DNA of 64,000 nt from Myxococcota bacterium (GTDB lineage Bacteria; Myxococcota_A; UBA9160; UBA6930). Position numbers: made by a program. Positions within the stretch are counted from its first letter, which is position 1. Every line of letters begins with the position of its first letter. Shown piece after piece: positions 39,811 to 51,800 of this stretch. The DNA lies in NCBI GenBank assembly GCA_965223705.1, contig OZ245015.1:672001-736000 (forward strand). The letters run 5' to 3'.

Positions 39811-42800
39811 CATCGCCGACGTCGTCACCCATCCGAAGCGGGCCGCCGCGGCGCTCTCGGGCGTCGTGCACAAGATGGAAGAGCGTTACCAGATGATGGC
39901 CGCCGTCGGCGTGCGGAACGTCGCGCAGTTCAATGAACGCGTCGACAAGGAGCTCGCCGCGGGCAACACACATTTCCGGCTCCGGCCGAAACCCGGCGAG
40001 AGTGAAGGCGCCGAAATCGCTTATGAGCGGCTTCCCTACATCGTCGTCGTGATCGACGAGCTCGCGGATCTCATGCTCATCGCGGCGCGCGACGTCGAAG
40101 AATCGCTGCAGCGCCTCGCGCAGATGGCGCGCGCCGCGGGCATCCACTTGGTTCTCGCGACGCAACGGCCGAGCGTCGACGTCATCACCGGGGTCATCAA
40201 GGCGAACTTCCCCTCGCGAATTTCGTTCCAGGTTTCATCGGGGCACGACTCGCGGACGATTCTCGATCACAAAGGGGCGGAGCATCTGCTCGGGCAGGGC
40301 GACATGCTGTTCCTCGCCCCGGGTACGTCGAAACTACAACGGCTACACGGACCGTTCGTGACCGAGGACGAAGTGACCGAGCTCGTCGGGTTCCTGCGCG
40401 AGCAGGGAAAGCCCGAGTTCGATGAGGCGCTCATTCGACTCAAGGAAGAGAGCGAGGCGAAGGAAGTCCGCGGTGAAGACGTCGACGAGCTCTACGACCG
40501 GGCGCTCGAGATCGTGGCGGAGACACGCAACGCTTCGATCTCGTACATCCAGCGCCGTCTCAAAGTGGGCTACAACCGCGCCGCCCGCATGATCGAGCAG
40601 ATGGAAATCGAAGGCGTCGTCGGCCCCCAAGAGGGGGTGAAGCCGCGGGAAGTCTTTGTGCGCCCCATCGGCGAAGACTACGAGTAACGAATCTTCGGAA
40701 TCCGCCTGCGTCGGAGAGTGCATGCCCGCAAGAACCCGCGCCACTTCGCTCGCGGCCGCGTTGCTCGTCGGCCTGCTCCTCGGCATCGGTGCCCAGGGCG
40801 GCGGCGAGACGGATCGGGAGCACCCCGCACGCAACGGTTCGGGCTGCGCAGAATCGCTGTCGGTACGCGTCCAGGCGTACTACGACCGGATTCGCGGGCT
40901 CCGCGCAGATTTCGAACAAGTGAGCCGCAGCGTGGCGCTCGGCGCCGGAGAGGCCGCGACCCAATCCTCGAGGGGCAACGTCACGCTCGCCAAACCCGGG
41001 AGAATGCGGTGGGAATACACCGGGCCCGAGCCGAGTCTCGTCGTCAGCGACGGAACCACGTTGTGGATCTACGATCCGGAAGCCTCGGAAGTCCAGGTTC
41101 TTCCGATGACGGGAGACAGCCTGAGCGGGGCGGGACTTCAATTCCTCTTCGGCGAGGGCAAGCTCACGGACGCGTTTCAGATTGCGGCCCGGCGTTGCGA
41201 TACGGATCGGCCGGAGCTTGTACTGACGCCCAAGGACGAAGCGCTCTTCGAAAGGATCATCCTCGAGGTCGATCCCGAAACCGGAGTGGCCCGCGGGACC
41301 GAGATTCGAGACCTCTTCGGAAACCGCACGGAGCTCGTGCTTCACGACATCGAGACCGACGGCGACTTCGACGACGGAATGTTTCGGTTCGAGCCGCCCG
41401 AGGGCACCCGAGTCCACCGACTCGAAGGGCCGTAGGCCGACGCCTTTGCGCGCCCATTAAAGGGAACACCGCTTCCGGGATTGCGGTGGAACCGCGTACT
41501 CCACCCGAGAAAAGCGTCAAAATCGTGTCACGGCGTCGGCAGACTTGCATCTCGAAACGGCATGCGCGGCGCAATTGACGGTCCAACCCGGCGCTTTTTC
41601 AGGAAAGCGATTCCCCGCGCAGGGGCGCGGTGCGAAATCATCAAAAAGTGTTTTATTTTCGAATAGTTAGCTTGCCCGCGGGGGCCCCGTCCGGTTGACA
41701 GCCGGGGGGCGTCTGATATTCTTAGTTTCCTAAAAGTAGAGAAAAAACAAGCACTTGCGAGTTTTTTCTCGTGTCCGGGCACCCGACGGAGAGGGTAGGA
41801 CGTCGGAAGCGGCGAAGGAGGCGCGCAACGAGAGCCGCTTCGCGACCCGCTTTTGGCTCCTTTTGTCGAGAAATGGCCGGGTGTCGAAGGGAATTGTTTG
41901 TTAGACCGCCCGAACCAAGCCTGGATGGTCGGAAAACGGCACGCAACGGCCTCCGAAAGCCCGCGCGGTCGGTGCACTCTTGGTGAGGGTTATTTCGTCC
42001 GGTTGGAGCCGGCAGCCATAGAGCCCACCCTCTTCCGCTCACGCGGCACGGGCTTTGCACTAGTGGGCTGCGGGAAACTCGTCCCAGGTGGCGGGTTCGA
42101 AAAGGGGAGAGGGCGCGATGAGCGAGTTCGATTCGGATTCTTCAGACGGACGAGGAGGCCCCTCGGGCCGGAGATTTGGGCGCGGCGATCGCCGTCCCGT
42201 CCCGGTATCTCCCCGCGGCGAGCGGGGGGGCGACGGGGAGCGTGAGCGAGCCATGGCCCGGTCTTTCCAAGAAGAAATTGAAGACCTCCGGGAAGCGATG
42301 CGCTTCTTCGGGGGCGATTCAGTGGAGTTTCGCCGCCGCTTAGACCGCGTGCTGGCCGAGCACGAGGCGCTGCGCCGTCGCTTCCACGTGTCTCGCGAAC
42401 AGCTGACCGACGCCGAGCGGCAGAACGAGAAGCTCGTGCACACGTTGCAGGAAGCGAAGCAGCAGATCGAGCTGCTGAAAGAGGAAGTCGACAAGCTCTG
42501 CGCGCCGCCGAACACTTACGGCGTCTACCAGCGCTCGAACAAGAACGGAACGGTTGAAATCGTCGTGGACGGGCGCCACATGCGCGTCAATGCCCATCCC
42601 GATCTCGATGTCTCGACGCTCGAAGAGGGCCAACTGGTCGTCCTGAACGAAGCGTTCAACGTCGTCGAGTCGTCGGGCTTCACGCAACGCGGTGAGATCG
42701 CGGCGGTTGTCGAGTTGCTCGGCGACGGTCGGGCGATTGTCCTCGGGCACACGGACGACGAACGCGTCGTGACCCTCGCGTCACCTCTGCGAGCCGGCAA

Positions 42801-48800: not shown

Positions 48801-51800
48801 CGAAGCTCGTCATTCAATCGTAGGGCGCACCGACCATGCCGGTGAGTGACGGTGGCGGGCATCTGCGGGCGGTTCCGGAAGGCGACGGTCCCGCCGAGGC
48901 TCCGTCGGCTCCTCCTCGCGCGTCCGGTTCCGGTGGCCGCGCGCGTATCGTGTTGCTGTCCGCCCTCGCCTTGGGACTCCTCGTCGCAGGCTTCGGTTGG
49001 TTTACCTCGCAGCAGCGCGCCACCGCCCTTCAGGCCAAGCTCGACGCGGTGAGCGGGCAGCTCCGCGACAGCGAGAACGCGCTCCGTGCGACGACTGAGG
49101 AGCTCGCGGCTCGTAGGTCTCACTTCGCGCGGGTGAAGAGCTCGGTCGACGCGTTGGCCGTCGAGCTCGACGGGCTCCGATCGGTCATCCGAGAAGAGCC
49201 GAAACGTCCGTAGCTCCCGCGTTCTCGGCCTCTCTAAGCGCAACCCCTGCGCAGTCTCTCATCAGAAACACGCAGTTGTAACGCTCTCGCGAGAGTCTTC
49301 CACGCTCACGCAAGAATTCGTCTAGGCACTGCAAATTGCTACTCAGCACAATGCGAAGCACGGCCGATACATCCTCCGGAGTCTAAGCCCCCATCTCCGT
49401 GCGGAGGATGACTGCGATGTTGTTCGACCCGATCGCAGGAAGAATGTCGAGCGATCTAGCGATCGATCTAGGGACCGCGAATACGTTGGTCTACGTTCGC
49501 GGCAAAGGGCTCATTTGTTCAGAGCCTTCGGTTGTCGCCGTCACCGACGATGAATCGGGCCGCCAGAAGGTGCTCGCCGTCGGTCACGAGGCGAAGGAAA
49601 TGCTCGGGCGAACGCCCGGGGGCATCCAGGCGATCCGCCCGATCAAAGACGGTGTGATCGCGGACTTCGAAATTACCGAGGCGATGCTCCGCTACTTCAT
49701 CCAGCGAGCGCACAATCGTCGCAAGCTGGTCCGCCCCCGAATCGTTATCTGCGTGCCGCCGTGTATCACGAGCGTCGAGAAGCGCGCTGTTCGCGAATCG
49801 GCGTTGTCCGCGGGAGCGCGCGAGGTGTTTCTCATCGAAGAGCCCATGGCCGCGGCGATCGGAGCCGGGCTCGACGTGACGGCTCCGACGGGCAACATGG
49901 TCGTCGATATCGGTGGCGGCACCACGGATGTCGCCGTGATCTCGTTGTCGGGAATCGTGACGTCACGATCGATCCGCTGCGGCGGCGACTCGATGGACGA
50001 AGCGATCATCAACTACGTGAAGCGCAAGTACAACATGCTGATCGGCGAACGGACCGCCGAGAACATCAAGATGACCATCGCGACGGCCTCCGCCACGTCG
50101 AAGACCGAGACGATGGAGATCAAAGGCCGCGATCTGGTGGCCGGCATCCCGAAAGTCGTTGTCACGACGAGCGACGAGATTCGAGAATCTCTCGTCGAGC
50201 CGATCAGCGCCATCGTAGAGACCGTGCATCTGGCGCTCGAACGAACGCCGCCCGAGCTCGCCGCCGACATCGTCGATCGCGGGATCATGTTGGTCGGTGG
50301 TGGCTCGCTCCTGCGCGACCTCGATCAGGTGCTGCGCCAAGAGACGAAGCTACCGATCCTGCGCAGCGAGGATCCTTTCACCGCCGTAGTCCACGGTGCC
50401 GGTGTGGCCCTCGATAACCTCGAGCTGCTCCGAGACGTCGCGATCCGCTAGGCGCTAGCGTTCGCCGATCTATCGGCCGCGCTGAAAGCGGTCGACGGCT
50501 CGCGCGTGCTCGCTGTACGTCTTCGAGAAGACGTGGCTTCCGTCTCCGCGGGACACAAAGAAGAGGAACTCCGAGTCCTCCGGCTCGACGACCGCGCGCA
50601 ACGCGGCGGCGCCCGGGTTCGCGATCGGACCCGGCGGCAGCCCTTTGATCTGGTAGGTGTTGTAGGGGTTCGTGTCGTCGTTTAGATGCGCTCGCGTCAA
50701 GTTCCCGTCGAAGTTCTCGACGCCGTAGATGACCGTCGGATCCGTCTGTAGACGCATTCCCTTGGCGAGACGATTGAGGAACACCGAGGCGATGCGCGGT
50801 CTCTCGTGCGCGACACCGGTTTCTTTTTCGATAATCGAGGCGAGCGTCACGACGTCGTGCATCGAAAGGCCGGCTTTCTCAGACGCGTCTTCGATCGTTC
50901 GCCACGTGGCGAGGAACTGCTCCCCGAACGCCTCGAGGACGGCGCGCGTGCCGAGGCCACGCGCGAGGCGATAGGTCTCGGGGAACAAGTAACCCTCGAA
51001 ACTGTCGCCCTCGAGACCCAGCTCGTTCAGCCAGGTCGTGTTGGCAACGCCTTCGAGGAAGTCGTCGCGATCGGCCAACCCGGCTTCGTCCAGGCGAACG
51101 GCAATTTCGGTCGCGCGCAAGCCTTCGGGGATGCTGACGGTGCGCATGCGCACCCAGCCCTCGGTGAGCCGTTCGAGAATTTGGTGCGCCGATTCGCGCG
51201 GAGATAGCTCGTACTCGCCGGCCCGCAGTTCGCTGCCGAGACCCCGGTAGCGGGCGAGCCATTCAAACGCGAATGCGTCGACGAGCCCGGCGCTTTCGAG
51301 CTGCGCAGCCACTGCGCCGAGGGTGACGCCTTCCGCCACCTCGAAGTCGACCGACGGGCCGTCGGGATCGCGGGGGCCGAGCGCGATCTTGACCCAAAGG
51401 GCTGCAGCCGCTGCGCCGAAGACCGCAACGGTCGAGATGCCCAGTACGAACCAACGCCACTTCATCGCTGATGACGCTCGAGCCAGGTGCGCAGGATGAG
51501 CGCCGCCGCCGCTTCGTCGAGTTGACCGCGGGCCCGGCGACGCTGTCTGCGCGAGCGCTTCGGTTGTAGCGAATCGAGATCCCGCGCGGCTTGTTGCGAC
51601 GTCATGCGCTCGTCGACGGTGTCGACGGTCAACGAGGTCGCGTTCCGAAGCGCCTCGGCGAAGGCGAGCGCCGCTTCGGCTTCGGGGCCTTTTCGGCCGT
51701 CCATATGAAGGGGTAAGCCGATCACGATGTGCTCGATTTCGCGTTCTCGTACCCAAACCGAAAGAGCCCCGAGGTCGGCGCGCAAGTTCTTTCGCTCGAG

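Follow-up and report, generated by a model that had tools for sequence, protein, structure and literature searches.

A complete predicted Pup-proteasome operon held at one chromosomal site in the Myxococcota class UBA9160

The Pup-proteasome locus of a Myxococcota bacterium of the class UBA9160 is summarized in Table 1, with positions counted along the window, i.e. the whole stretch of 64,000 nucleotides that was analysed (contig OZ245015.1, positions 672,001 to 736,000). The genes arc, dop, pup, prcB, prcA and pafA are intact and lie in this order, all on the plus strand, with spacers of 54, 27, 84, 2 and 17 nt in turn. An earlier note had described a complete six-gene operon at 42118..48823 between ftsK-lolA and mreB, and both parts of this description are borne out, the first by the ORF map and the NCBIfam passes, and the second by family matches of all three flanking genes. 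The NCBIfam cut-offs are passed as that note had said, but the identity to Actinomycetota proteins, given there as 50–57%, is 40–57% when each gene is compared with 26–30 Actinomycetota loci.

Table 1. Features of the Pup-proteasome locus and its surroundings, in window positions.
Feature	Position	Strand	Basis and remarks
ftsK	38246-40687	+	Pfam match; upstream context
lolA	40656-41435	+	PF03548; upstream context
Sigma-70-like promoter, TTGACA-16-TATTCT	41695..41722	+	about 400 nt upstream of arc; 10/12 consensus match
arc/mpa, proteasomal AAA+ ATPase	42118..43977	+	TIGR03689 735.7, cut-off 504.75
dop, deamidase/depupylase with Dop loop	44032..45516	+	TIGR03688 572.4, cut-off 492.3
pup, 90-aa tag ending GGE	45544..45816	+	TIGR03687 55.6, cut-off 41.45; PF05639; directly after dop
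N-terminal Pup leader, residues 1-24	45544..45615	+	ends hydrophobic-hydrophobic-x-Ala-Ala
prcB, 20S beta subunit	45901..46698	+	TIGR03690 297, cut-off 191.9; best PDB match 1q5r
prcA, 20S alpha subunit	46701..47399	+	TIGR03691 278.3, cut-off 139.05
pafA, Pup-protein ligase, without Dop loop	47417..48823	+	TIGR03686 557.2, cut-off 551.3 (narrow pass)
PafA C-terminal tail, basic/hydrophobic	48773..48820	+	nearly invariant in class
Orphan ORF, 125 aa, between pafA and mreB	48836..49213	+	one hydrophobic stretch, then probable coiled coil
mreB	49399..50451	+	profile match; downstream context

The locus is situated on a 4.5 Mb contig among housekeeping genes, including the outer-membrane marker LolA, and the order ftsK-lolA ... 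mreB is identical in both orders of the class. Among 80 related loci, many of them clipped at contig ends, each operon gene is present in 74–80, with lolA in 71, ftsK in 69 and mreB in 50. The third-position GC of the operon (0.74–0.84) is like that of the neighbouring genes, and its overall GC is 58–63% versus 64.7% for the genome. A pattern similar to the promoter in Table 1 occurs in 60 of 91 lolA-arc spacers compared to 0.65 on average in mononucleotide shuffles, the pattern having been tuned after examples were seen, and a housekeeping sigma-70 promoter probably drives the operon. Unlike the actinobacterial system, there is no pafBC beside pafA, and the single WYL gene of the genome is located elsewhere.

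Arc (best PDB match 7px9, E 2e-193) contains a coiled coil, two OB domains (Pfam OB_N and OB_C), an AAA domain, Walker A/B motifs and a pore loop, and ends in GQYV. The four Arc motifs were found in 89 of 89 loci; the C-terminus is GQYL in 91 of 97 related loci, and the penultimate Tyr is present in all 98 loci counted. Dop has 4b0r as its best PDB match (E 1.5e-156), with its active-site columns (Asp-His-Ala-His) kept in 98–99 of 99 sequences and the Dop-loop pattern in 97 of 99. PafA is best matched by 4b0t (E 9e-107) and has the GhExE motif and the catalytic Asp, His and Arg; residues E9, E11, D57, H61, E63, H123, R193 and W418 are kept in 77–79 of 79 sequences. The last 18 residues of the PafA tail are identical in 62 of 82 loci, with close variants in 19 more, and the four Actinomycetota PafAs compared end before this region.

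PrcB has a propeptide of 43 residues, with the mature Thr1 starting at 46030, and Thr1, Asp17, Lys33 and the equivalents of Ser129 and Asp166 are present in 96 of 96 sequences. The residue two positions before Thr1 is Glu in the window and His in 92 of 96; this Glu, together with the GQYV ending of Arc, might slow maturation or docking. The pocket lysine of PrcA, K51, is conserved in 94 of 94. The PAC2 chaperone, reported previously to lie elsewhere in the genome, corresponds to a PF09754 match at G000:C1:854223-854876 (G000 being the genome under study), and PAC2 is found in 44 of 58 class genomes versus 0 of 243 from other classes. HslV exceeds its cut-off in 117 of the 130 class genomes of at least 90% completeness, and hslU is adjacent to it in the genome under study. 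Bpa was not found in this genome, in a search that gave no positive control match.

The Pup proteins depart from those of actinobacteria. The GGE ending noted previously is present in the window but is not class-wide, with 46 GGE and 33 GGQ endings among 79 related loci. With starts picked heuristically by Shine-Dalgarno score, Pup is at least 78 aa long in 81 of the 95 distinct sequences from the class, in 7 of 7 Tectomicrobia and in 7 of 7 Moduliflexota, but in 0 of 27 Actinomycetota and 0 of 9 Poribacteria system 1 sequences, and the leader is 15–30 residues in size across the clade. Across 40 rows, A23 and A24 are each conserved to 90% or more, and an inner Met occurs at the leader junction in 35 of 95 leader-bearing Pups. 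Our best guess, held at slightly better than even odds, is that the leader extends the stretch of Pup used for threading or docking and carries a binding motif; that it is a propeptide cleaved at the Ala-Ala site seems distinctly less likely, and that it is never translated less likely again.

The system is distributed broadly within the class. The 20S beta model TIGR03690 is passed by 195 of 225 UBA9160 genomes, and the other 30 include fragmented assemblies but also a few that are at least 90% complete. At E<=1e-40 the 20S beta subunit is found in 72 of 78 class genomes versus 0 of 323 Myxococcota of other classes, and the Pup ligase family PF03136 in 64 of 66 versus 9 of 275; none of the nine matches in other classes comes close in strength (best E 2.7e-82), and eight of these nine genomes have a single match. 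The counts of 195/225 and 64/66 agree with the earlier proposal of a near-universal core trait. The class is not unique in this, since the trait also reaches 79–100% in other diderm lineages (TIGR03690 is passed by 17/17 Tectomicrobia, 9/9 Moduliflexota, 97/101 Poribacteria and 80/101 Methylomirabilota genomes), in addition to Nitrospirota at 42% (51/121); in an even sample of Actinomycetota the figure is 100/201.

The relationships of the operon proteins were examined in a five-gene tree and in paralog-rooted Dop/PafA trees. UBA9160 is monophyletic (support 98–100) and groups with Tectomicrobia and Moduliflexota (93–100), the mixture-model trees being quick runs with SH-aLRT support only. The sampled Actinomycetota (11–36 rows) are also monophyletic (92–100), and UBA9160 lies outside these sampled rows in every Dop, PafA and five-gene tree; Leptospirillum was not identified in the tree sample. 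A grouping of UBA9160 with Acidimicrobiia-like rows, a test group chosen after a tree had been seen, was rejected (p-AU 0.0005). The PrcA and PrcB single-gene trees resolve poorly, and the outgroup of UBact type sits on a very long branch (about 3.7). The description as actinobacterial-type thus stands as regards family membership but not as regards descent from within the sampled Actinomycetota, and the sequences indicate an old diderm branch of UBA9160, Tectomicrobia and Moduliflexota, separate from the actinobacterial branch and not a recent copy of it. Over 54 loci, the operon tree and a tree of FtsK and MreB have most of their strong splits in common (31 of 37 and 26 of 28), with a patristic rho of 0.94 and one strongly supported conflict; given the linkage of these two genes to the operon, this agreement is not independent of transfer as a block. 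The conserved gene order, the class counts and this agreement bear out the earlier view of an inherited core trait and not a sporadic transfer. We therefore favour, at a probability of about 0.82, a predicted functional Pup-proteasome that became fixed at a single chromosomal site in the UBA9160 ancestor and has been inherited vertically since.

The actinobacterial system matches this one in its six genes and their order, and likewise has a PAC2 chaperone, a tag ending GG[EQ], a Dop loop, a docking tail of the form GQY(L/V) and identical catalytic residues; it differs in its sequences (40–57% identity, a separate clade), in lacking the Pup leader and conserved PafA tail among the proteins compared, and in that UBA9160 is diderm and keeps HslUV, which passages of PMC3511204 describe as missing from actinobacteria. 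A Nitrospirota locus, credited to De Mot 2007 in parts of PMC5666114, PMC3511204 and PMC8142254, resembles that of UBA9160 in its Gram-negative host, its arc-dop-prcB-prcA-pafA genes (43–60% identity) and its position outside the sampled Actinomycetota. However, it forms a separate branch with Methylomirabilales, its Arc mostly ends in GHY(L/F), N. moscoviensis has no pup between dop and prcB, and no leader was seen in the Nitrospirota Pups examined.

By analogy with the actinobacterial pathway, as set out in passages of PMC3511204 and PMC8755798, PafA with ATP would link Pup, via its C-terminal glutamate, to target lysines, and Dop would strip the tag and, in relatives with a Gln-ending Pup, deamidate it first. 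The coiled coils of the Arc hexamer would bind the Pup helix and the disordered Pup N-terminus would be threaded through the pore, with the GQY(V/L) tail docking to the alpha rings of a 20S core of PrcA and PrcB, in which propeptide removal from PrcB frees Thr1, and whose assembly PAC2 would aid. The pathway would then serve as a general route of regulated turnover beside HslUV.

Several other readings can be weighed against this one. The genes could be real while pupylation is mainly regulatory (reversible tagging or complex disassembly), in which case most degradation would fall to HslUV and other proteases and the 20S core would have few substrates. The retention of HslUV, the failure to find Bpa, the degradation-independent roles of Pup mentioned in PMC3511204 excerpts, and the far greater within-class identity of PafA (78–97%) than of PrcA and PrcB (46–76%) are in keeping with this, but the invariance of the PrcB catalytic residues, the PrcA pocket lysine and the Arc penultimate Tyr, and the co-occurrence of PAC2 with the proteasome, make it unlikely. 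It is far less probable still that the locus is a UBact-type system or a single ligase with no proteasome role. UBact is known in Gram-negative phyla, has a tag ending in R[TS]G[EQ], and shares a homologous ATPase, ligase pair, small tag and 20S subunits. The second Poribacteria operon, which we take as its representative, is 26–45% identical, with a tag ending in RTGE and an ATPase without the penultimate Tyr, and it clusters with proteins that bear the labels Armatimonadota, Latescibacterota and Gemmatimonadota, a long way from the UBA9160 clade; this placement, the GGE tag of the window (GG[EQ] in the class) and its pass of the Pup model refute a UBact identity. The Pup ligase of Plesiocystis and Rhodopirellula, the former a delta-proteobacterium, is described in part of PMC2588565 as one membrane-anchored enzyme without proteasome genes, and the nine weaker ligase matches in other Myxococcota speak for this reading, but UBA9160 has separate, soluble Dop and PafA paralogs, each over its own cut-off and aligning to 4b0r/4b0t without a transmembrane insert, and adjacent proteasome genes, which rules out a Plesiocystis-type ligase.

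Recent or repeated transfer from Actinomycetota, or MAG contamination, is also improbable. Transfer from Actinobacteria to Gram-negative phyla is proposed in portions of PMC7947786 and PMC5666114, the operon GC is below that of the genome, and none of 323 other Myxococcota yielded the system, so that either the class gained it or the rest lost it. Against this are the long contig, housekeeping neighbours and matching third-position GC, the gene order kept across both orders, the absence of nesting in sampled Actinomycetota, the rejected Acidimicrobiia-like grouping, and the nearest relatives, Tectomicrobia and Moduliflexota (PafA 59–64% identical) rather than Actinomycetota (45–51%). Recent transfer from Actinomycetota is thus largely refuted, and ancient transfer from a stem actinobacterium may have occurred. 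In the best trees Actinomycetota join Rokubacteria (support 96–98 for Dop and PafA, 84 for the five-gene tree), but a root on the Actinomycetota stem was not rejected (p-AU 0.49 and 0.19). We tentatively raise a joint reading, itself rather doubtful, in which the Pup-proteasome is old in diderm phyla (UBA9160, Tectomicrobia, Moduliflexota, Poribacteria, Methylomirabilota and Nitrospirota), Actinomycetota acquired it from a Rokubacteria-related donor, and the Pup of UBA9160, Tectomicrobia and Moduliflexota is a precursor whose leader has to be removed or bound. If true, the usual direction of the transfer story would be reversed, and leader processing or binding would be an extra control step unknown in actinobacteria.

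The Pup leader, the PafA tail and the coexistence with HslUV, none of which the earlier note mentions, are specific to this clade. Bacterial proteasomes are called actinobacteria-restricted in a passage of PMC6466877 and confined to Actinomycetales and Nitrospirales in one of PMC8142254, and extracts of PMC7947786 treat the remaining cases as sporadic and transfer-derived. The claim of only a few sporadic cases outside actinobacteria fits NC10, Nitrospinae and Proteobacteria, but not the Nitrospirae-wide conservation in print (both in parts of PMC7947786 and PMC5666114), nor the several diderm phyla at 79–100%. No paper was found linking the system to class UBA9160, in line with the earlier literature search on pupylation and Myxococcota. 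By these counts the system is core both to the class, with its 225 genomes, and to four further diderm phyla, and it is commoner there than in the even Actinomycetota sample. Because the long branch leading to Actinomycetota is broken up by these lineages, the origin of bacterial proteasomes becomes testable with trees. The coexistence with HslUV argues against a simple replacement of the proteasome by HslV outside actinobacteria, an idea found in part of PMC5666114. The Pup leader and PafA tail set these proteins apart from the enzymes studied so far in concrete ways that can be tested, and an orthogonal tagging tool could be built on the PafA/Pup pair. The 125-aa orphan ORF reached no family cut-off in NCBIfam and Pfam profile searches; ORFs similar to it form one cluster and are present in 41 of 68 pafA-mreB intervals.

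The window contains a complete Pup-proteasome operon, arc-dop-pup-prcB-prcA-pafA, as the earlier note had claimed: the six ORFs share one orientation, with intergenic gaps of 54, 27, 84, 2 and 17 nt, and each product scores above its NCBIfam cut-off (see table), the closest solved structures being the actinobacterial enzymes 7px9, 4b0r, 1q5r and 4b0t. The operon is flanked by ftsK and lolA on the upstream side and by mreB on the downstream side, is present as a single copy on a 4.54 Mb contig, and has a third-position GC content resembling that of the neighbouring genes. The PAC2 gene that the same note placed elsewhere in the genome is also found. 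Four related loci (L025, L027, L042 and L036) carry insertions of about 0.9–3 kb in the prcA-pafA interval, and recA, which in the window lies downstream, directly precedes arc in two Poribacteria loci (L101, L102).

Coordinates of features in and around the operon (window positions unless a contig or locus is named) and NCBIfam scores
Feature	Position	Score (cut-off)	Remarks
ECF-type sigma factor, then possible anti-sigma factor	34041-35729		upstream
lolA	40656-41435		accepted frame
ORF tried as lolA	40718-41578		ruled out, no family match
Sigma-70-like promoter	41695-41722		similar pattern in 60/91 spacers
Hairpin after predicted promoter	41739-41770		z -2.8 for 56-nt stretch
Operon	42118-48823		+ strand
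Arc		735.7 (504.75)	passes
Dop		572.4 (492.3)	passes
Pup		55.6 (41.45)	passes
PrcB		297 (191.9)	passes
PrcA		278.3 (139.05)	passes
PafA		557.2 (551.3)	passes
Hairpin between pup and prcB	45839-45866		GC-rich, without U tail
Orphan small ORF between pafA and mreB	48836-49213		membrane-anchored, probably coiled-coil; look-alikes in 41/68 pafA-mreB intervals
cinA - 2'-5' RNA ligase-like - recA	54897-57914		downstream cluster
PAC2 gene	C1:854223-854876		away from operon
Divergent Poribacteria operon beside Pup-type	L204 (G550:C1:63500-77500); L205		examples
dop-prcB without intervening pup	L276:5638-5671; L285, L315, L274, L290, L325		Nitrospira and Rokubacteria
Third Pup-ligase homolog	G015:C3:2261711-2263420		also G001, G012, G017, G021, G022, G027, G187, G189
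Extra Pup-ligase pair	G059 (C42 and C88); G071 (C161)		two class genomes

The integrity of the system was judged in alignments of 79–99 related loci, with the PrcB motifs scored by alignment columns; the records are titled mostly as Myxococcota or Deltaproteobacteria MAGs, with some labelled Spirochaetales or carrying only the class handle, and the loci were counted as class members on synteny and trees, with some genomes present twice. The residues, to which we assign roles from known enzymes, are retained almost throughout. PrcB Thr1, Asp17, Lys33 and the equivalents of Ser129/Asp166 are invariant (96/96), as is the PrcA pocket lysine (94/94), and the active-site columns are conserved in 98–99 of 99 Dop and 77–79 of 79 PafA sequences. 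Arc keeps its Walker A, Walker B, pore loop and second region of homology in all 89 sequences; its C-terminus is GQYV in the window and GQYL in 91 of 97 related loci, and the window's PrcB has a Glu two residues ahead of Thr1, a position occupied by His in 92 of 96. What the data show directly is the gene content, the intactness of the catalytic residues, their conservation, the linkage and the position in the trees; by analogy with the actinobacterial pathway (passages of PMC3511204 and PMC6466877), PafA would ligate Pup onto target lysines in an ATP-dependent step, Dop would reverse the tagging and carry out deamidation, Arc would capture and unfold the tagged protein, and the 20S core would cleave it.

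The operon is a core trait of class UBA9160, which upholds the broader proposal of the earlier note. Of 225 class genomes, 195 score above the cut-off of TIGR03690 (20S beta subunit), and in an even sample of the phylum this model matches at E<=1e-40 in 72/78 genomes of the class and in 0/323 others. Pup ligase is found in 64/66 class genomes and 9/275 others, with the matches in other classes weak and mostly single, and PAC2 in 44/58 and 0/243, respectively. Among 80 loci fetched by Dop, many of them truncated at contig ends, pup is present in 79, prcB in 78, arc in 77, prcA in 75 and pafA in 74, and the flanking lolA, ftsK and mreB in 71, 69 and 50; the layout is identical in eight loci from other order(s) of the class, and the genome named 'isolate UBA9160' falls in the same order as that of the window. 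For 54 loci (56 of 101 were usable before removal of duplicates, frameshifted or under-covered loci being left out), the operon tree and an FtsK+MreB tree share 31/37 and 26/28 strong splits, with a patristic rho of 0.94 and one strong conflict, in a comparison that is not fully independent since the flanks are linked. Taken together, the prevalence, the conserved layout and the co-phylogeny say that the operon was present at its current site in the class ancestor. Some class genomes also encode a third Pup-ligase homolog, which is longer (frames of about 600–650 aa or more), a weaker match and possibly of the Plesiocystis type, and two have an extra Pup-ligase pair.

The nearest outside relatives of Dop are from Entotheonella (Tectomicrobia) and Poribacteria, followed by Moduliflexota, Methylomirabilota and Nitrospirota, including N. 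moscoviensis. With each phylum named after the title of its centre genome's record, TIGR03690 passes in 17/17 Entotheonella-phylum, 9/9 Moduliflexota, 97/101 Poribacteria, 80/101 Methylomirabilota (two unpublished genomes included), 51/121 Nitrospirota and 100/201 Actinomycetota genomes (eight unpublished genomes included). Most Poribacteria have two proteasome operons, one Pup-type and one divergent, in which the tag ends in RTGE and the ATPase is without the penultimate Tyr; the latter clusters with proteins labelled Armatimonadota, Latescibacterota and Gemmatimonadota, and we take it to be UBact-type. It shares only 26–45% identity with the window's system. In the Nitrospira and Rokubacteria operons prcB follows dop almost directly and the interval holds no pup; N. 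moscoviensis encodes, in addition, a divergent second beta subunit, and the Rokubacteria PafA C-terminus resembles the actinobacterial one.

The origin of the system was addressed with FastTree on 272 rows of Dop and PafA, with five-gene trees (50, 36 and 32 rows) and with paralog-rooted trees under mixture models (50, 63 and 61 rows), all from quick searches with support by SH-aLRT only; 14 of 50 rows were dropped from one five-gene set and the long-branch locus L324 from some paralog-rooted sets, and Leptospirillum was not identified among the rows. In all Dop/PafA and five-gene trees UBA9160 forms one clade (support 98–100) that groups with Tectomicrobia and Moduliflexota (93–100), and Actinomycetota form one clade (92–100) with UBA9160 outside; the single-gene PrcA and PrcB trees are poorly resolved. 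The trees therefore make a donor from within the sampled crown Actinomycetota unlikely, and both directions of the oldest transfer are compatible with them. A grouping of the diderm rows with Acidimicrobiia-like rows was rejected (p-AU 0.0005, for a group picked post hoc and with a long outgroup). Constraining all diderm rows together in the paralog-rooted trees was not rejected (p-AU 0.49 for Dop and 0.19 for PafA), and for this reason we make no claim of a nesting of Actinomycetota within the diderms. Rokubacteria (L274, L290, L325), once added, are sister to Actinomycetota, with support of 96–98 in Dop and PafA and 84 in the concatenation, and the Methylomirabilales (L269, L270) group with Nitrospirota, so that at least one transfer took place inside Methylomirabilota. 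We conclude that the window's system is a true Pup-proteasome of known kind, on a distinct diderm branch.

Gram-negative proteasomes as such are already known. Passages of PMC2588565 describe Pup as sporadic in deltaproteobacteria, with a single membrane ligase and without a proteasome, those of PMC5666114 list Armatimonadetes, Nitrospirae and Verrucomicrobia, and PMC7203096 mentions Poribacteria and has passages on Pup and UBact; PMC11354881 names UBact and nothing further, PMC12288473 makes no phylum-level statement, and PMC6081418 does not mention the proteasome. Our search, thin on subscription journals, found no literature linking UBA9160 to the proteasome, none since 2017 on Pup or PafA in uncultured Myxococcota and, judged by titles and the openings of abstracts, none on these lineages; the 2017 UBact paper may already list some of the phyla. 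The system thus occurs in a lineage for which no report was found, and its diderm branch has a Pup leader and a PafA tail of its own. More surprising than its presence in this class are its spread over diderm phyla and its position outside Actinomycetota.

The Pup leader separates this clade from the actinobacterial system. Of 95 distinct Pup sequences from the class, 81 are at least 78 residues long, as are all seven each from Tectomicrobia and Moduliflexota, whereas none of 27 Actinomycetota Pups, nor any of nine from the Pup-type operon of Poribacteria, is that long. The leader adds 15–30 residues and closes with a hydrophobic pair (97% and 80%), one variable position and Ala-Ala (83 and 81 of 95), and leaderless Pups start near this junction. 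In a subset of sequences the ribosome-binding site is usually better at the upstream start, also where an inner Met is present, but such a Met lies at the junction in 35/95. Because the ATPase threads Pup by its N-terminal segment (passages of PMC8755798), the leader could extend or gate threading. A leader HMM run against 13,856 candidate N-termini of the window's genome matched Pup alone (next best E 0.34) and so gives no sign of a shared leader-processing pathway, and no recurrent peptidase-like ORF cluster was seen in the operon spacers when clusters were assessed by eye. The tag ends in GGE in 46 and in GGQ in 33 of 79 loci, so some members of the class require the deamidase step of Dop.

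Conservation within the operon is strongest for PafA (78–97% within the class), and 62 of 82 loci have an identical C-terminal tail on this protein. Of 130 well-assembled class genomes, 117 score above the cut-off for HslV, and the window's genome has an intact hslVU. A search for HslV gave no match in the six genomes of genus g11, which belongs to the window's family (G202, G204, G205, G207, G209 and G210); five of these keep the proteasome, and a loss specific to this lineage is possible. A search of the window's genome for Bpa gave no match, as was also the case for the control genomes.

The sigma-70-like promoter, together with the absence of pafBC beside pafA, suggests housekeeping expression of the operon. 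No + strand terminator was found within it, and an Rfam scan of window 40000-51000 gave no match at E<=1. The hairpin that follows the predicted promoter stands at the start of a leader of about 400 nt, and that between pup and prcB, folding at -25 kcal/mol for a 51-nt stretch (z -2.3), could by this prediction make the arc-dop-pup portion of the mRNA more stable.
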